64,000 nucleotides of DNA from Lama guanicoe. Taxonomy: Eukaryota. Of this stretch, positions 6,846 through 58,436 are shown one piece after another. The notes beneath the pieces were generated by a model. The model saw only the letters and a program-made list of their open reading frames with translations, ran no database searches and was not told where the DNA came from. Made by a program: the position numbers and the translations under genes. Location of the stretch: contig MU053594.1 in the NCBI GenBank assembly GCA_013239625.1, forward strand, positions 1,519,654 through 1,583,653. The letters run 5' to 3'. Each line of letters begins with the position of its first letter. Position 1 is the stretch's first letter.

Positions 6846-6985
6846 TTTTGTCTTTTTTGGGGGGGGTGGGAGGGAAGGAATTGGGTTTTATTTATCTATT
6901 TTTCAGTGGCGGTACTGGGGATTGAACCCAGGACCTCTTGCGTGCTAAGCACGTGCTCTATCCCTGAGCTCTACCCTCCACTCCT
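6846..6985 (-). mobile_element. Vic-1-like camelid tRNA-derived SINE
   Basis: Reverse complement reads ggagggtagagctcagggatagagcacgtgcttagcacgcaagaggtcctgggttcaatccccagtacc (A and B boxes). Perfect 15-bp TSD caagtctacacttgg at 6831-6845 and 6986-7000. Confidence 0.92.
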
Positions 6986-28054: not shown

Positions 28055-28661
28055 TGACACAGGAAAATATGGGGTGAGAGGATGGCTGTGTCCCAGGTCT
28101 CGGTTGAGTCTCTGGGACGTGCCCCACCAAGTGTGGGTCCTTGGCTTCACACAGGAAAGAATTCAAGAGCGAGCCACACTTGAGTAAAGGTAGATTTATT
28201 CAGAGAGGTGCATACTCCATAGACAGAGTGCAGGCCATCTCAGAAGGAGACAGGCCATGAGGTGTGGGGGTTGACTGTTCTGTTTAAAGTGAAAGTAGAT
28301 ACGCACTCCATAGACGGAGCACAGGACATCTCAGAAGCCGAGAGAGCAAGAGACCCGAGGCTGGGTGTTGCTGGTTTTTATGCACTCAGTAGCTTCATAT
28401 GCTAACAAGTGAGAGGATTATTCCAACTACTTTGGGGAAGCGGCTGGGATTCCCAGAAACTGGGCCATCACCCAACCTTTGCCCTTTTATGGTCAGCCTT
28501 AAAATTGGCACCGATGGGAATGCCATTTAGCATGCTATTGTATTTTAATGGACATATATTGAGGCTCAAGGTCTACTAGGAGTTGAATCTTCCACCACCT
28601 TGGTGCTAATTGCTATGTCATTCTTTTAATGGTTGTGCCTACCCCCTCCCCTCCTATCTCA
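28055..28661 (-). mobile_element. ERV1-type solo LTR, family A copy 1
   Basis: TG...CA termini, perfect 4-bp TSD TTGG, minus-strand AATAAA at ~28195. Homologous along its length to 32904-33534. Confidence 0.92.
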
Positions 28662-32903: not shown

Positions 32904-33534
32904 TGATGCAGGAGAAACAGACGTGGGGCTTCAGGAGGGCCGTGTCCCGGGCTTCGGCTGAGCCCCTGGGACATACCCCGCCAAGTGTGGGTCCTTGGCT
33001 TCGTGCAGGAAAGAAGTCAAGAGTGAGCCACAGTTGAGTAAAGGTGGAGTTATTCAGAGAGATACATCAAAAGGCAAAAGAAAAGCCATGAGGTGTGGGG
33101 GTTGGGTGCTCAGATTAGAATAAAAGTAGTTACACACTCCAGACAGAGTGCGGGCTGTCTCTGAAGAGGGAAGGGTGAAGAGCGAGAGAGAGGGGCCTTG
33201 AGGGGCAGTGTTGCCAGTTTTTATGGGCTTCTTAGCTTCATATGCTAATGAGTGGAAGGACCAGTCTAACTAGCCTGGGGAAGGGTCTGGGATTCCCAGG
33301 AAGTTGGCCATTTCCCACTCTGACCTTTTCTGGCCAGCCTTGGGACTGCCATGGCACCTGTGGGCGTGTTATTCACCATATGGATATGATACAGTAAGCA
33401 TATGACAAAGCTCAAGGAAGTCAAGTCTCCCACCATCTTGAGCCTCAAGGCCTCCTAGGGGCTGAATCTTTCGCCATTCTGGTGTTAATTGTGTTGTTCC
33501 TTGAATGACTGTGCCCTGCCCCCTTGCTGTCTCA
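32904..33534 (-). mobile_element. ERV1-type solo LTR, family A copy 2
   Basis: TG...CA termini, perfect 4-bp TSD GCAC. Shares 'ccaagtgtgggtccttggcttc...aggaaagaa..caagag' and other blocks with 28055-28661. Confidence 0.92.
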
Positions 33535-40600: not shown

Positions 40601-41390
40601 AATTCAGTCATCAATATTTTGATTCGAAAGAGATTTTTCTAGCACACTCTAAGTGCCCAGCAATATTCTGGACTCTAGGGAAACTGTGATAAAAAAAGTC
40701 CACAGGCGGGATTTTTCTCAAGACACTGTCTAGCCTTGCATTTAATTCTCCTTACATGTTTTATGCACTAGTTTTGTCTCCACAAATAAATTAACTCCTC
40801 GAGAGAAGAAAGCACATGATCCTCTTCCCTGTAGCCACTCTGTACGCACAGGAAGAACTCAGTAATGCATTTCACTGCGATACCTGGGGATTGACTGAAA
40901 AGTAGCCAGTTTCCTAACATCAATTATGATGAGAAGAAAAGAAGGGGTGCTTTTTTACTTGGGGCTCTCTTTCCCCTACCTCCCTTGTGCCGGGTGTGGA
41001 TGGTTACCACCTTCAGTGGGTTTTCCTGCAAGCACAGGAGCCTTATGGCTGGCCTAGCCTGATGTGGAGGGCGCTTCTCAGTCTCCAGCCTCCACCAGAA
41101 GACACATCAAACCTCCCCTTCCCCATATTTAAGCAACTTGAGAGAATAACAGTTGATCACTTCCTCTTACATCAGGAGTTCTCTATTGTTTTTACAGCTT
41201 GAATCCCTTGGGCAGTCTCGTGAAGCCTGTGGAACTATCTTAGATTAAGGTTTGTCAATGCATCAAATAAATACACAGGATTACCAAAGAAAACTAAATA
41301 TACAGAAATACAATTGTGTTTTAAAATATATTTATTATATAGTAATAGATTTGTTTCTTTGCACGACATTAAAAATAAAACATCACATAT

Positions 41391-41580
41391 AAAATAAACA
41401 GCTTTATTCTGTATAGCACCTGTATTCAATATCTTGTAGTAACCTGTAATGGAAAAGAATATGAAAATGAATATATGCATGTATATGCATGACTGAACTA
41501 TTATGCTGTCCACTAGAAGTTGACAAACCATTACAAACTGACTATATACTTCAATAAAAAATTTTTAATTAAAAAAAAAA
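41391..41580 (+). mobile_element. L1 3' tail nested in the hAT element
   Basis: 'attctgtatagcacc...gaatatatgcatgtatatgcatgactgaactattatgctg...tacttcaataaaaa' with degenerate TSD aaaacatcacat/aaaacattacat. Confidence 0.88.
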
Positions 41581-41629
41581 CATTACATTTGAAATACAGT
41601 CAAATTAAATGTTAATTTTTAAAGACATA

Positions 41630-43230
41630 CCCAGATGAACACTTCTGCTGACCTTGCACAAGAACATAAAATGTGAGAATGATCTTAAACAAGATAATAC
41701 ACGTCTTGTTGAAAACCCAGCTGATTTTTTTTATGGTAACAATGTTGAAAATTCAATCCTGAAAGATAGAGTGTTGAAAATGAAATTAAAGCTTGGGAAC
41801 TCCTTCACAAAGTAAAGGTCAGTGTCTCCTAGGGACCACGAAAACCGTCCAAGGCTTGTTGGTGACACTTTAGTTATAGTGTTTTTTTGGTCCCAAGATC
41901 AATGAGTTCATCTTTGGCTAGGTCAACATCATTGATAGTTTGTATCAGAAAGAAAAAGAATGCAACCGCTAGGATTCAGTTTTGTTACCATCAAGACAGA
42001 AATAACTTTTGCAAGGGTTCTAAAGTGTTTCCAGGTGTTTATAAATTATTCTTTTCAAATAAATTGACAGCAGCTTATAATTCAATTCCATCAAAGTAAG
42101 GTACTTTCCCCAGCATTTGAAAGTCTGCGAAGATGTCAGCCTCCTATCAGCCAAGAAACCTCATAATGTTTTCATAAGCATCAGGGCCTTCAATTCAAAG
42201 AGTCGTCTCATTCATGTGGTTAAAAATAACCTACCAGATAAGGCAACCAACCCACAGACCAAATTCTTTCCAAGTGTTCCCAGAGTGAATTTTCGTCTTC
42301 TTTTATAAAAAGTGAAACTTCCCTTTTGAATTCAATGAGCTTCTCTATGGTAAAGAAGTCCCTCATTTTCTGCTATGGTTTCTTGACAAAACCTGTAAAA
42401 AATACTATGATTCAGAGACCGGCTTTTGATCGAGTTGCTGACTTTTATGGCTGTTAACGAAACTTCTCTCAGGATTTTGGAAAAGCCAGAATATGTCGGT
42501 ATGAAACGCAGCAAGTGAAAACGTGACATGCTTCCTTTTTCACTAAAGCAATATCAGGTATGCAACCAAACTGCACCATCTCCAAGACGTCAGTGGTCTT
42601 GGCAGTTTCCAAGGAACTCACAAAACGAGAATTCTTCTTTGCTGATGTTAGCGGGTCAAGGTGAACAAAACAAGGAGGTGGCTACATTAAACGATGCCTG
42701 TAGTGACTTACATCGAGTGACTTACCAGAGGGGAAAGACGAGGTGGCTAGTTCCCCCATTACTCACTTCGAAATACTCCGACCCTTCTCCATGGAAGCAT
42801 CTCCTTTGACAAGACAGCCACTGCCAGTCCAGTCCCCATTCCCAGCATATGTGGCTTCAGCTAGTTTCCCCAGTGACCTGGGGGTTCTTTAGTTTGGCAC
42901 CTGGGGAGAAACTTCAGGAATGCTTCCAGAATAGGTTTTCATGAAATGGCAAATTTGCATTGAGGAAGTAGCCGATTTTTTTCTCAAACTGAGCTTTCTT
43001 CATCCATATACACACTAAACCCTTCATTTCCTTTGGATGCATTTTTTTCTAGATGGGCAGACATGAGTTATTCAATCCTTCAGTCTTCCTGACTTCAATC
43101 TTCCATTTGCAGTAATTTTTCCACAAAAGAAAAGAAATCATTGTGGCTTCCATGCCCTCTCGCTTTGTTAATGTGAATGAAACCAGGTACACTGTTTTCA
43201 TCACACCTTCCTTTGCTTTGCCAGCTCAAG
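41630..43230 (-). pseudogene. Decayed hAT/Buster transposase (ZBED5/FAM200/ZBED8-like family) with many frameshifts and stops
   Basis: ORF 42332-42529 ...LREVSLTAIKVSNSIKSRSLNHSIFYRFCQETIAENEGLLYHRE matches the Buster motif L.EVL..AVKVVNFI.ARALNHRLF..FC.EMG.EH..LLYHTEVRW. Manual reading also gives KEEFSFCE..ETAKTTDVLEMV, KKAQFEK, KPILEA, AYL...FNHMNE and an FSTLY...FSTL-like C-terminus. Confidence 0.9.
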
Positions 43231-45339
43231 ATAAATTGGGTCTGTACAAATAATAAATAAAGCTAAAATCAAATATTTTATTCCATTATCATTTTTTGAA
43301 ATATAATACTTACTTTGTGGTTCCTAAGAGATTTGTTTGATAAACCTACTTAGAAGGGAATCATCTGCACATTAAGTATAAAATATTCATTAAATTTTAT
43401 GACAAGTAAGGAAACTGAGGCAGATTTTTACAATCAGCCAGTGTTTACACTGATAACACCTCTTTACTTTTGTATGGACCAGCGGATGACAGCCATAGCT
43501 CAGGAGCCCTGTTCTCGCTGGAATTTAGCTGTTGCTTCATACAACTCCCCAGGACTGTAGAAATAATGGTTCTCATTTCTCATATTGTCGGTGTTTCCCA
43601 CAAAGTTATTTTTGTTTAATGTGGGACATTTTCACTGAATAAAAGTACAAGAACAACATGTGCATGATAAACTGTGCGTGGAGGACTTGACTTCATGGCA
43701 CAGACACTGTGCAAACAGCGAAAAAGAAAAACAAATCAAAGACAGAACTGTTGCTACTCAGAGCGCTTACCACACTGTCATGACCCGTGTCGCCGTGCAA
43801 TCTGCTAGCCATCAGAAGAAGTCACTTTAAATATCACACTTCGGCAGTTAGCTCGGCAAATCAGACATGTTTCAACTCATCTGTGTCCCCAAAGGCTGCA
43901 TTCCCGAAGGACAGAGGGAAACTCACGTGACAGCAATTTGGATCGGCAAAGCTTTAGCACACTGAAAATGATTCAACTCCTTCTGTGTATTTATCCACAA
44001 ACAATCGTGGTTAAGGAATGTTGGAAGGTCTGGGTCATCCCCATGAGAATACATCGCCCACCCCATGCACGGTGGCCAGGCAGTAGTGGCTACGACGGAG
44101 GAGAGTTTGTCAGGAAGATGCATCCCACACTTCCAGCGGCGACTAAGAGCTTCTGTAATTTCAAAAGAGTGGTGGGCATGAGTGACATATCCAGGTGTCT
44201 CCCACAACTGTAATGTGATAGGAAAATATTTGTGATTTCTACTAATGACAAAATCACAGGTCGTGCTAATACCAGTGGTTTGTTGCCACACTCATAATTG
44301 AAAGAAATGCCACATTTCAGACTGAGGATCGTAAAAAAGAACCTGCAATTTTTCTGTGCCCAAGTTCATGAACCCTCTGACTTCTCTTCCACAGACCCCA
44401 TGGGCCCATGGCTTCAGTTAAGAGCCTCTGTTTTATGTGGTTCGTAGTGGTCCAGGGGAGTGGTTTCCAAATTTCAGAAAAGGGAAATGAAAAAAAAAAA
44501 AAAAGGAAAAAGAAGCAAGTTTTTATAATGCTACATTTATTTATGATAACTTTTTTTTCTTCTTTGCTTTTAAAATGTTCTTTTTGATGAAATGATAAAG
44601 ACTGTAGATGGTAATTGTTTAAATGTCTTTACTAGGTGAATAATGAGGAGTTGGCGATCTTGTTGCCAGTTTCCTCATCTACTTCTTTCAATGTATTTAT
44701 GGGTCTATGAAATCCAAACGCTAGAACTCATTTGTCCAGGACATCATGACAAACCCACTGAGCCCCGGTACCTAGTCCCCCTCAAAAGAACCCCAGATTA
44801 GTCTGTTTTTCCACTCCTTGCAGGAGGTGGCCCCATTCCCATCTGGAGAAAAATCCCGAGTGGTCTAAGCAGTCATGGAAAGCCCGTTGTCTGGGCAGAG
44901 ATCGATTTACTGGGTGGAAACATGGCTCAGTCTGGCCAGTTGGGCCGGAAAGGAATGTGGTTGTGACTGGGTGTCTGATGTCTGGAAATGCCGGGGTCAT
45001 TCCACCACCACAAGGGAAGGCAGCCTGGGATGAAGTTGGCAGAGTGAAGAGAAGGAGAGAACCCCGCCCTGGATGGCCTCTCGGGGCTGACCCCACCACC
45101 GGGAGCTGCACCACTGCTGGACTTTTTGCTACATAAGATGGTTCCTAATTGTCCCCCGCCATTGAGTTGGGGGATCACTAACTCCCAGATGCAGTTGTCC
45201 TAACTGATGCAGCCAGACACTGTGAGAACCTTCAGGAAGGGCCGTTACCTCTAAACACAATTGCCGCACCAGGGCACGAAGTGAGCTCACCTGTCCCTGT
45301 TTATGGAGATGATGTCTCCTGCAGCCCTAACTTCAGCCA

Positions 45340-46265: not shown

Positions 46266-46644
46266 TGCTATGGACTGAATGCTTGTGTCTCCCCAAAAAC
46301 TCATATGCTGACGCCCTAAACCACCACCACCCCGAAATGTGACAGCATTAGGAGGTGGGGCCTTTGAAAGGTGATGACGTTGAAGTGATTAGGTGTAGAT
46401 GAATTCACCATGGGGTTCGTCTCCTTCTAAGGGGAGGAAGAGGCTAGAACTATCCCTCTCTCTCTGTCATGCGAGGACACAGCAAGAAGGCGGCCATCTG
46501 TAAACCAGGAAAGGAGTCCTCACCAGATAATGATTCTGTTAGCACCTCAATCTTGGACTCCCCAGCCTCCAAACTGAGAAATAGATGTTTGTTGTTGAAG
46601 CATCCAGTCTATGGGATTTTGTTGCTGCAGCCCGAACTAAGACA
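46266..46644 (+). mobile_element. MLT1A/B-like MaLR solo LTR
   Basis: 'tgctatggactgaatgcttgtgtctcccc...aggtggggcctttgaaaggtgat...ccagtctatgggattttgttgctgcagcccgaactaagaca'. Confidence 0.88.
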
Positions 46645-49329
46645 AGATCGTGTACGTAAGGCTTCTAGCTTTTCGTATGTTAGCCCAGTATAAGCATTTA
46701 TCAATGCATATCTTAATTTTTGTTTGAATTGCTATCACAGAGCTGAAACAGGGCCTTAGAGAGCAAATAATAATCTGATTTCACGAATGTGCTCCAAAGA
46801 GGCACCAGTGACAGAACCAGCAGAAGAAGCCAAGCTCGTGGCTCCCTCTGGGCACCACGTCCATCACAGCCTGCGTGCATCCTGATTCTCTGTGCTCTGA
46901 CAGCTCAGGGCCCTCCCAGAGCTGAGAAAGTATCTGAAGAGGGAACAGCTATGAGCTTCTCTCCTCCGGGTCCAGGGTGGGTTTAGCTATTGAGTGAATG
47001 CAGAAGGGACCAGACGGGTGCTTCTCTGCTCCCAGAGAATCTTCATTCCCTCAAGGAGCCTAAAGAGACACAGGCTAGGAGAATGTCCTAATTAATTCAG
47101 GACTATTCATCTCTTTTATAGGGCCTTCCTGGAAAAAAATATTCCAGACTATTTATTGAGCTTTCTTTCAGCACTGGTCATTCTCTCCCTGTCCTGGGAC
47201 CAACAGAGATTAATTCCCTACTAATGGCATCCTCATCATGCTGATACTCAAAGGGTATTTTGTGAGGATGCTGTTCAGAAACAGCGTCACACGCACACAC
47301 ATACACCTGACCAAAAAATAGGTTCCTGGATGCCTGCCTGATGTTGCAGCTGAACAGCTGCTTGACAACAACTGGGACGAAGAAAGAGAGACAGTCAGAC
47401 AGACAGGGAGAGAAAAACCAGTAAGAAGTCCATGTGCCCATGGGGGCAACATAATCAATCACTCCTAAAGGGCGTACTTCCCCTGGAGAAAAGATTTAAG
47501 GAAACAGGCAAGCAGATTGGAGGAAAAATTCCAAGTCGGCTGATTGAAATCTGTTGTATGTTCATGCTATTTGAGAGCACATCACTTTGCATTAGGCAAT
47601 CAGCTTATGCCTTAGGTAAATAGAAAACAGAAACTCTTTCCAAGAGATGAGCACGTTTAGCAGAGACATCTCTTTGTGTTGCACACTGCCCACACCTCCT
47701 TCCCTGTGGTCTCGTCTCTGATGAGACACGTCCAGGTCCCTCCAGACGGAAGGCCCCTCTGCTCCTCACTGATGATGACTGTCTCCAGGATAACCAGGAG
47801 GTGCTTCCAGAATGCACGGCGCTCTCCTTTGTCACCTTCCTCTGTAAAAACTGTTGCCTCTGCCTGGAACCCCCTCCTCTGGCCTCCTTGCCCACCAGTG
47901 TTTGCCTAGAAAGCATCCTTCCAACACCATCTCCTGCAGAAAGCCTAATCTGGGGCCCCCGGGGGGCTCCTGTGGCGCCTTGTCCCCACCCTTGTTGTGA
48001 CAATGATCACCCTGCTGTAACTACCACTTCTCAGGCACATTCTTCACATTTTTGTGTTCTGCTGGGTCACTGTACCCACTCCTGTTGTGATAATAATGAT
48101 TCTTTTGCTCTTATTGCTCAATTCTGAAACACACTCTTTTTTTCACTCTTGAATGTTTCTAAAATCAGGATGTTTTGCAACAATGTGTACATTGAGTGTG
48201 GTAGTGTTTCTGTTTTTGGTTTTTTTTTTCTCCTAAAGAGCTGTTATTACATTGAGAGTGCATTTTAAAATCAAAGAAGTGATGTTACTTGAATGAGCCC
48301 GACGTCCCTTCCCTACTGTGAACTGGGGGGGGGCGGGGAGCAGGACCCACGTTCTGACCATCTTGCATCGCCGCCCCTTCACAGAGGGCTGGCTCTGCAG
48401 CTACTGCTGCGTAAATGCTGGAGGCAGGGAGGGAGGGATGAGGGCGAAAGGAAGGAAGAAAAGGAGGAAGGAAGAAAAGGAGGACGGAAGGGAGAGCTCT
48501 TCCAGCACCGTTTAGGAAGCACAGTCACAGCTGCTCCCATTCAGTTTGATTTCCCATCAGCGGGCGCTAGGCTCTCTCCCTGGGGACCTGCCTCGGAGTT
48601 TCCCCACTACTGACTGCCTTCTGGGCACTCACGTCTGCCGCAGATCCCCAGCACAAGGCAAGGCTCATCAGCCCCCCAGGGCAGGCGCTGTGAAGGGAGA
48701 AGCTGACCAGGAGGAACGTCACCCCTCAATTCAGTTTCACTGCGATCCCGCATGCCTTCCATCACTCCTCCACCAGCTCCTTGTCTGGCCCGCCGAGCAT
48801 GCCAAGCTCTGGCCCTGATCTAACCTTCCCTGCCTGATTTCTCGAGACTCTGGCCAGCTGATTTTCTCATTTTCCCCAACTCCTGCCTTGCCAGTGACAT
48901 TTTCCCTGGCCCCCAGCTATCCCAGGACATCTTTGATCCCCCTGTCCTCCCAGACCCCTCTGAAGAGCATCTGTTGTCTGAGCTAGACCGGTTAGCACCG
49001 GATATGCTGCTGCTGGTGTTTTATTAGCATCTCCCACAGCAGAGGGGCTAAGCACATCCTTAGCACTCAGACCCAGGATTGAAACAAATTAACACAATGA
49101 TCAGCTCTCAGGGGCTCCTCCTCTCTCGTTTCCTTGGTCCACACTTCCTTCTACTTCCAGCCCAAACAAATCTCTCTCTGAGGCCCCCAGTTAAGAATTA
49201 TGCCCCTTGCCTCCGGTTTTTCCAGGTATTTTGTTGAAGATATGTGTGGACCATGCTCCAAGCAGCCCCTGGCAGCCGGGACCACGTCAGACATCTCTCT
49301 GAACTGGCCTCTCTCCTTGGCTACTGTGT

Positions 49330-56664: not shown

Positions 56665-57178
56665 GAGAAATTTTAAGCCCTGAAATTCACTATTATACAG
56701 AATAGACATTTACATTACTAAAAGGGTCTGTTTTGTGGTTAAAAGCTACAAGAGAATTTTATTATTTGAGGTGGCAGAGAGAGTCACGAGGTCTGCCCTA
56801 GAAGTTAGTTATCAAAGGAACAAAAAAGTACTAGCCTGAGAGCAGGTTTGAACAGGCGTGGACAACAGTTCCAACAACAGCTTGGAAGCTGTCTACGTAT
56901 GTTCTAGGGATTACTGCTTGCTCAGTGTACTGATTACTGCATCATCCTTATGTGATCAGAATGTGTAATATTTTTCCTTGCTCCTTTTACTTCTATGAGA
57001 GACATTTTAAAAAATTCTTATAATGTGTTACTTTAAAGTGGAGAAAAATATAATACACACCTTTTTTTAAGCCAGTGAAGTTACCCAGTCTTCCTATTTT
57101 GGTTACAGTCAGCTCTTTACTAATTACTAGCACCTTCTGCTTTAAAAACTGTAGTCAACTCAATACTCAGTTGATGAC

Positions 57179-57531
57179 TGTCTTTGTCAGTTTGGGCTGC
57201 TATAAAAAAATTACCATAGGCTGGTGACTTAAACAGTAAGTGTCTATTTCTCACAGTCTGGAGGCTAGAATTCTGAGATTAGGGTGCCCCCCATGGTCAG
57301 GTTCTGGTGAGAGCCCTCTTCTGGGTGTCAGACTGTCAACTTCTCACTGTGTCCTCAAACGGCAGAAAGAGGGGAAGAGAGCTCTTTGGGGCCCCTTTTA
57401 TAAGGGCACTAATCCCATTCATGAGGGTGGAGCCCTCACCTCCCAAAGGACCACCTCCTAATACCATCATATTGGGAGTTAGGATTTCAAACTATGTATT
57501 TGGGTGGGACAAAATCATTCAGTCCGTAACA
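57179..57531 (-). mobile_element. MLT1A-like MaLR solo LTR
   Basis: TG...CA termini with perfect 5-bp TSD ATGAC. Contains 'tataagggcactaatcccattcatgagggtggagccctc'. Confidence 0.92.
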
Positions 57532-58028
57532 ATGACTGAGACCTTGTTATATTCAAGGAAGTTGGTCAGTGCGGCCAGGGAAGGGAGCTAAGAACAGCAG
57601 AGCAGAGAATACAGGCTAATTCAAGGGTCTATTATGGTGCAGCCATCACAGGCAGGGTCTAGCTGGAAACAAAAACATTCCTGTGGCAAATTATAGGAGA
57701 CCTCTGGGTCAAGATCCAAGTAAAACTGGTAAAGAGTTTGCCTGCAATTATGGGGCTCACAGACGTCCTCCTGAGACCAAGCCCAGGGGACAGCATTTTG
57801 GGCTGTGTATGGCTTCACCCTGCTAATGTCCTAAATCAGTCTCCCCATCATGTACTACAACTTTCTCATGGCGTTATTATTCTCATCTGCATTTGATGTC
57901 CAAGCTATAAATGGTGGATCCAGGATTTGACCCCAAGCAGCCACCCCAAGGTTGTAACCACTCCACCATGAAAATATCACCCCCATTGCCTATTGACCAG
58001 ATGAAACATGTAAAGTGCTGAGCCCAGC

Positions 58029-58436
58029 TGTGTTTGTTTGCTGGGGCTGTCATAAAAAGATACAATACCAGGGCGGCTTAAACGACAGGAATTTGCCTTC
58101 TCACCGTTCTGGAGGCTAGAAGTCTGAGGTCAAGGTTTTGGCAGTGTTGGTTTCTTCTGAGGGCTGCAAGGAAAGGTCCTGTCTAGGCCTCTCTCCTCGG
58201 CTTACAGATGGCTGTCTTCTCCCTGTGTCTTCACATTTGTCTTCCCTGTGTGTGTCCAAATTTCCCCTTCTTATAAGGACACTAATCATATTGGATGGGG
58301 GCCCACCCTAAAGGATTAATTGTACCTTAATTACCTCTGTAAAGCCTTATCTCCAAATGTGGTCACGTCTGAAATACAGGGGGTTAGGATTTCAGCATAT
58401 GAATTTGGGGTGAGGGTCACATTTCAGTCCATAATG
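58029..58436 (-). mobile_element. MLT1C-like MaLR solo LTR inserted in a MIR
   Basis: 'ttctggaggctagaagtctgaggtcaagg...ttcttataaggacactaatcatattgga'. 5-bp TSD ccagc/ctagc. Confidence 0.88.

Follow-up and report, generated by a model that had tools for sequence, protein, structure and literature searches.

Transposons of the Buster group of the hAT superfamily are described as carrying one open reading frame (ORF) of about 600 amino acids between terminal inverted repeats of 14–16 bp, flanked by an 8-bp target site duplication (PMC12637253, PMC3575427), the lengths given in the first of these sources being 2.5–3.0 kb. The 8-bp duplication of hAT elements and the Buster target consensus nnnTAnnn are defined in PMC3517528. 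In mammals, Repbase counts Charlie4 and Charlie4a (MER80) among the human hAT families (PMC5753468), and they are also annotated in elephant (bioRxiv 10.64898/2026.02.25.707932); the Charlie4 model of Dfam 1.2 is given as 1,961 states (PMC4229909). Here we describe a segment at positions 41173..44430 of a 64,000-nucleotide stretch of the Lama guanicoe genome (contig MU053594.1; this whole stretch is called the window below). The best explanation of its features is a single hAT/Buster DNA transposon that was inserted once, by cut-and-paste, with an original length of about 3.3 kb, and we put the probability of this at roughly 0.8. The element is beyond doubt dead: its transposase frame is destroyed, it makes no enzyme and it is not its own helper. 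The locus is a neutral fossil of a real single Buster-type insertion, and the kind of element is already known.

The transposase relic lies on the minus strand and is collinear over the whole ORF with P0162, an intact transposase of 598 amino acids (one of a cluster of five) which has an open frame, all three acidic catalytic positions and a hAT dimerisation domain above the Pfam cut-off. A frameshift-aware alignment of the two gave 50–51% identity, with 10–11 stops, 19–24 frameshifts and 70–71 unmatched residues, mostly in eight gaps of at least three residues; the score was 576, against 32–44 for 10 control stretches. When the best 120 of 318 transposase relatives were used as queries, all 120 matched within 41500–43400 and none matched elsewhere in the window. 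The motifs KPILEA, KEEFSFCE and LLYHRE are found in this order in the relic. The initial annotation had proposed this order on a minus-strand relic from ~43230 to 41630, which agrees with the 43224 to 41630 that we measured, although its LLYH(T)E is corrected to LLYHRE. The C-terminal hAT dimerisation domain is assigned indirectly, through collinearity with P0162, which passes the PF05699 cut-off. The coding features are as follows.

41630..43224, minus strand: transposase relic, aligning to residues 1–597 of the 598 of P0162
43054..43149, minus strand: BED-finger-like region, in which the first Cys and the first His are read as stops
42712..42714, minus strand: first catalytic Asp codon (D177 of P0162), kept, with a frameshift adjoining
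42565..42585, minus strand: gap junction, with 25 residues unmatched around the second catalytic Asp (D244)
42325..42350, minus strand: junction of an 11-codon gap within VRWLSRGQVLKRLFKLR, ambiguous in placement and common to five other decayed ORFs
41757..41759, minus strand: site matching the catalytic Glu (E551 of P0162), where the relic reads Gly, with a frameshift adjoining

We take the BED finger to be one from its C-x2-C...H-x4-H pattern, and D177, D244 and E551 are assumed, from hAT motifs, to be the catalytic residues. At the D244 junction a microhomology of 7 nt reads as either side, so that the D244 codon itself may persist out of frame, but about 20 codons leading to the Asp are gone; an outright deletion of this codon was considered and dropped because of the ambiguity, as was a placement of the 11-codon gap over VRWLSRG. 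The stops, frameshifts and catalytic-site damage bear out the earlier view that there is no functional gene here. Unlike an active element, the copy has no open frame, and neither its DDE triad nor its BED finger is intact; and whereas domesticated Buster genes (ZBED5, ZBED8, FAM200, SCAND3) have an open frame and no terminal repeats, here the frame is broken and both repeats and duplication are present. It had also been hoped that the copy would help to rebuild the ancestral transposase. With eight gaps of three residues or more and two of the three catalytic positions damaged it is a poor template for that enzyme, because far better preserved relatives (the Crocodylus porosus copies and P0162) are public.

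The relatives were reached from a full HMMER search with one relic frame, which gave 15 hits: 13 short ORFs, one repetitive protein (P0003, dropped) and one fish FAM200A-like protein, which carries a hAT dimerisation domain. Alignment of four of these hits led to the 318 longer relatives, P0012 being aligned separately. All of the best 120 are ZBED8-, ZBED5- or FAM200-like, names which we take to belong to the Buster group; the trees contained neither an Ac or Tip outgroup nor any named Buster. Pfam matched none of the three raw frames of the coding region, and over nine frames in all it gave one match (E 0.51) of chance quality; a word-seeded search with a 128-residue relic frame found none among 247 candidates; and a PDB sequence search gave one chance match for the raw frame and none for P0162. 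Among three stretches of viral contigs there were no relatives, and eight terminal-repeat matches came without a transposase or element match. One of 39 stretches from prokaryote genome contigs was weakly similar (L036:4001-4225, 35% to transposase, in a bacterial metagenome-assembled genome), by chance or contamination.

The ends of the element are too decayed to be among the 25 longest inverted repeats of the window, and they were therefore tested against relatives for which only the coding region had served as the query. Among 35 metagenome loci, eight carry an element with a convincing terminal-repeat pair and an 8-bp duplication (three more were weak and were discounted); seven of the eight, which represent about three distinct insertions, are 2,422–2,452 bp long and one is 4.5 kb. 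The fossil starts with CAG at 41173 and stops with CTG at 44430. The CAG-starting 16-mers at these points, on the plus and minus strand respectively, match the 16-bp repeat of the complete relatives at 10/16 and 12/16, and this repeat length falls within the hAT range of 5–27 bp. As 58 CAG-starting sites in the window reach 10/16 the left repeat is weak by itself, whereas 12/16 is reached by two. With longer ends, the 70 nt on the right rank first of 3,201 CAG-starting 70-mers against the 5' ends of three relatives out of three, and the 70 nt on the left rank 1, 4 and 4 of 3,201 against the 3' ends, while the crossed comparisons rank at 76–396. This polarity, with 5' on the right and 3' on the left, is consistent with a minus-strand gene. 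Positions 44135–44430 align to the relatives' leaders (z 5.2, 2.2 and 2.7) and not to their trailers. The trailer of the fossil shows no alignment to the relatives' trailers past the terminus (z 0.7–1.8).

The flanking 8-mers are identical at 5/8, their three differences are all transitions and both have the TA core, and the target consensus nnnTAnnn is found at this one site. Among 200,000 random 8-mer pairs, all three properties (which were chosen post hoc) occurred together in 0.0025%, and 5/8 identity alone occurred in 3.2%. Thus the two degenerate terminal repeats that had been reported are confirmed by the 16-mer matches and the ranks of the 70-nt ends, and the proposal of an end-to-end element, with ends and coding relic of one family, holds in that the repeats are of Buster type and in matching polarity. 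The non-coding features are listed here.

41165..41172, unstranded: left copy of the target site duplication, 8 bp, TA at positions 4–5, TCTTACAT
41173..41188, minus strand: decayed 3' terminal inverted repeat, matching that of the relatives at 10/16
41189..41629, minus strand: 3' untranslated arm; the trailer, terminal repeat included, is 257 nt once the L1 and a single copy of its duplication are taken away
43225..44135, minus strand: inner leader, about 0.9 kb, no match found
44136..44414, minus strand: 5' subterminal arm
44415..44430, minus strand: 5' terminal inverted repeat, decayed, 12/16
44431..44438, unstranded: right copy of the target site duplication, 8 bp, TTTTATGT

The span is 3,258 bp including a later L1 insertion, below the 4 kb limit for the hAT superfamily. 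Subtracting the L1 together with one of its two duplication copies leaves 3,058 bp (leader 1,206, coding 1,595 and trailer 257), and about 3.27 kb would be expected once the missing codons are added back. The description of the element as 'apparently complete' is therefore right for the span but not for the ORF relic, which is without about 70 of 598 residues. Of the words of 41600–44200, a share of 0.89–0.97 was present in 17 runs besides the possible source, from seven studies and organisms A to E (18 of 24 listed runs, including the possible source), which argues that the locus is no assembly artefact and is common to close relatives; runs X19–X23 contained small shares, and no RNA run was among those listed.

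Established hAT biology suggests how the locus would have arisen: the transposase would have bound the ends, cut out a donor copy and joined it into a TA-centred target of 8 bp, which would then have been duplicated by repair. Neutral decay would have followed, by point changes and by short deletions at microhomologies, and the L1 tail would have been added later by target-primed reverse transcription. Less firmly, the decayed ORFs with the same deletions may be orthologues in other mammals, so that the element would have died early, and the family may have reached mammals by horizontal transfer from a Buster lineage that also invaded crocodilians.

The part of the element most open to a different explanation is the leader. 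Its 1,206 nt agree with the ~1.2 kb anticipated on the right. The outer boundary of the inner leader, 44135, was set from Charlie4a and also from the relatives' leaders of 251–287 nt. It found no match in the 35 metagenome loci or in any fetched protein and had no Rfam matches, which weighs against its membership in the transposon. Three weak matches within the window had E values of 0.009–0.46. It could be supposed that a transposon of 2.3–2.4 kb later received ~0.9 kb of foreign DNA, either a repeat or host sequence, in which case the extra length would be uninformative on the master element, the rest being compatible with the single insertion proposed here. The complete relatives fit this well, since at 2,422–2,452 bp they have short leaders like the outer arm alone, as do the 2.5–3.0 kb given for described Busters in PMC12637253; the segment also matched nothing that was searched. 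On the other hand, no convincing duplication brackets the segment (one match of 9/10 is about what chance gives), it is not repeated in the window, and the closest intact proteins sit on contigs of 3,001, 3,305 and 3,468 bp, near the expected 3.27 kb. In addition, the outer half of the leader is CpG-rich, as a transposon promoter region might be: the observed/expected ratio at 43700–44199 is 0.60, against 0.27 for the whole window, a value reached by three of 254 such segments. The evidence on whether the inner leader belongs to the element is thus weak either way; we regard a later insertion there as doubtful, but it is the alternative that survives best.

Three further features of the leader were observed. 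An acceptor-like signal lies about 18 nt ahead of the start codon position. On the plus strand, 43809–44213 is a stretch of 134 open codons antisense to the element, probably by chance, the first 109 residues of which gave no protein candidate. At 43396–43422 there is a short motif, with no extension shown, which to us resembles the MIR core.

The length bears on the library model. The family is very probably the Charlie4 of mammals, the two arms resembling Charlie4a, but the name is a presumptive one, and this tells against leaning on it. The 3,058 bp of the element without its L1 exceed the Dfam 1.2 model by 1.1 kb, and the two arms with the whole ORF would already need about 2,350 bp, more than the model has; sister models such as Charlie6 are longer. 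For that 2013 release an extension of the consensus by ~1.1 kb is therefore plausible, provided that the family is Charlie4. The suggestion that the copy may extend the library consensus is in this way supported by its length, and weakened by the ~0.9 kb of leader that matches nothing. The locus is useful as a scaffold: it establishes how the element is arranged and how long it is, where the 2013 library model cannot hold both arms and the whole ORF. The link to the crocodile copies, described below, is of greater consequence.

The second alternative concerns the state of the copy when it was inserted. The whole ORF span is present, yet one deletion is common to other decayed ORFs, and the copy may have belonged to a subfamily with the 11-codon deletion, moved in trans by the transposase of another element, rather than being a copy of an autonomous master. 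Most of the short ORFs match the relic at 42–69%, in shifting frames, which indicates that they represent other decayed copies, as read from public contigs; P0014 matches at just 31%, and two, P0010 and P0011, are more similar (71% and 85%) to other relatives. The 11-codon gap was scored by reading the sequences, because an automated test wrongly gave 'shared' for P0011, P0015 and P0166. On this reading P0002, P0004, P0005, P0007 and P0009 cross the junction without the missing residues, P0010, P0011 and P0043 retain the segment, and P0015 and P0166 stop there, so that they carry no information on it. The common junction is what a defective subfamily would produce. Descent of the five ORFs from this same insertion would explain it at least equally well, as their identity to the window is 44–65% in protein, or ~68–82% in DNA by simulation, and further gaps are shared in a nested way, as a species tree would predict: a 7-codon gap near 42150 is common to P0002 (of equal size but less surely placed), P0004, P0007 and P0008 and not to P0005 or P0009, and a 5-codon gap near 42183 is common to none of the five ORFs spanning it. 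The nested pattern agrees either with a defective subfamily or with other mammals having inherited this same insertion. Orthology was judged on the ORFs alone, which counts against the orthologue reading; overall we hold insertion of an already defective copy to be unlikely.

Either way, it is unlikely that some lineage keeps the frame intact at this locus, as had been hoped for, because with a deletion common to five decayed ORFs an intact orthologue is not expected. P0015 retains the segment at the second Asp, so other copies that keep this coding sequence do exist. One ORF, P0037, joins the zinc-finger part straight to the middle of the ORF, corresponding to 43144–43080 and ~42393 on the minus strand of the window. 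The joint falls where the window has what resembles a good splice acceptor, and P0037 has the appearance of a spliced RNA transcribed across a decayed copy in a different genome.

The proteins most similar to the relic come from a crocodile. Models from Crocodylus porosus have the highest identity to it (53–54%) among the best 120 relatives, followed by the P0162 cluster (50–51%), partial lobster proteins (49–52%) and a spider cluster (45%). Three crocodile copies, P0043 (A0A7M4E8X6), P0066 (A0A7M4F4W3) and P0165 (XP_019388644.1), carry ZBED8-like or ZBED5 annotations; compared as protein models, they are far less decayed and retain segments that are deleted in the relic. P0165 has an unrelated N-terminal part. 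To judge from their sequences these gene models are decayed transposon copies, because P0043 starts in the terminal repeat, with GVLNLG as a translation of the 5' terminus, and both UniRef models run past the stop position into YVFKK, where the window reads YVFKN. In the columns on which two crocodile copies agree, identity is 89% for P0162 and 58–59% for the relic. What can be upheld is that the parent of the relic was near the node joining the crocodile copies to P0162, within a group of six rows supported at 100/99.

This closeness suggests horizontal transfer between mammals and crocodilians. Buster elements are well known to undergo such transfer in general (PMC12637253, PMC3517528), and in the screen of 307 vertebrate genomes reported in PMC7070016 just 24 transfer events involved mammals or birds. 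At 38–39 crocodile-agreeing sites that differ in P0162, the relic has the crocodile state at 19–20 and that of P0162 at 1–3 (with three guides), which favours the crocodile link. Several results caution against making too much of this: these sites are mostly P0162's own changes or are ambiguous; of five crocodile-derived sites the relic shares one and has the P0162 state at one. A quick tree joined relic and crocodile at 97% and a careful tree gave 69/58, so that the quick support was not upheld, and approximately unbiased (AU) tests rejected no alternative placement (p 0.14–0.50).

The likeness could instead be due to vertical descent from an amniote ancestor with slow protein change and no transfer. 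Crocodilian genomes are described as slow-evolving and as keeping old repeats (PMC5753468), the clade of relic and crocodile is not resolved by the trees, and the comparison is at the protein level only. In contrast, the relic matches the crocodile-agreeing columns at 58–59% and the columns where all close relatives agree at 58–61%, which leaves little room for divergence between the masters. In a neutral simulation, 58–61% protein identity corresponds to about 78–80% DNA identity, a difference for which the normal ageing of an old repeat in mammals would fully account. Close relatives are also patchily distributed, with lobster at 69–75% and the spider cluster at 68–70% to the crocodile proteins. 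Vertical descent thus seems to us quite improbable.

Taken together, these observations allow a wider proposal, which we put forward tentatively and rate as unlikely to hold in every part: that the Charlie4 master was ~3.3 kb long with a 1.2-kb leader missing from libraries, that nearly the same element was transferred horizontally to early placentals and to crocodilians, that P0162 survives intact in a living host, and that none of this has yet been published or entered current libraries. In the literature searched, from which Repbase Reports and most subscription journals are absent, no title or abstract opening pointed to a link between Charlie4 and crocodilians. As C. porosus is credited with 41 hAT-Charlie families (PMC7070016), the crocodilian family is probably in some library. 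A mammal–crocodilian case that is dated and has an intact relative still living would lengthen a short list and reveal the origin of an old mammalian DNA transposon, and P0162 would provide a naturally occurring, working substitute for an element that died out in mammals long ago.

A last alternative, that the locus is a chance assembly (a short non-autonomous element split by an unrelated transposase fragment, or a decayed domesticated gene such as ZBED8, ZBED5 or FAM200), is barely credible, for although the trailer does not align past the terminus and the matches are named 'ZBED8-like' by automatic annotation, elements found via the ORF alone have the same terminal repeat and polarity, P0043 begins in that same 5' terminus and none of the named matches among the best 120 of 318 is mammalian.

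The L1 in the 3' arm and its duplication are as follows.

41377..41396, unstranded: left copy of the L1 target site duplication, 17/20 identical to 41577–41596
41397..41576, plus strand: 5'-truncated L1 3' end with an A-rich tail, a later insertion of 180 bp
41577..41596, unstranded: right copy of the L1 target site duplication, 20 bp

The L1 measured between the 20-bp repeats agrees closely with the one placed earlier at 41391–41580. The name L1 is presumed, and the insert is 72–84% identical to four further L1-type 3' ends in the window. At 17/20 its duplication is better kept than that of the hAT element at 5/8, as expected if the L1 is younger. The window as a whole is mammalian-type DNA, with 46% GC, the CpG ratio of 0.27 given above, and many repeated L1-type 3' ends and short repeats resembling transfer RNA (tRNA); its repeat types have a camelid look. 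Among the latter is a tRNA-Ala-like repeat at 6864–6979, 9869, 13768, 18699 and 19431, which ARAGORN reads as a tRNA yet which is repeated like a short interspersed element. Further repeats, matching one another at 69–72% identity, are those at 28079–28500 and 32933–33341 and those at 46455–46645, 57178–57374 and 58028–58136.

Of the systems compared, the complete elements of the metagenome loci (L001–L004 and L012–L014) share with the fossil the 16-bp terminal repeat, the 8-bp duplication, the subterminal motifs and the orientation of the gene. They differ in their length of 2.42–2.45 kb, in their leaders of 251–287 nt and in their DNA, which is 55–60% identical over long ORF matches. A related element of 4.5 kb, L010:3294-7826, has about 2 kb extra within the ORF span. 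P0162 matches the relic in its whole coding plan and has its own substitutions that are not found in the relic. TcBuster, AnBuster, the other active Busters and SCAND3 (from Charlie10) were likened to the element by their described plan.

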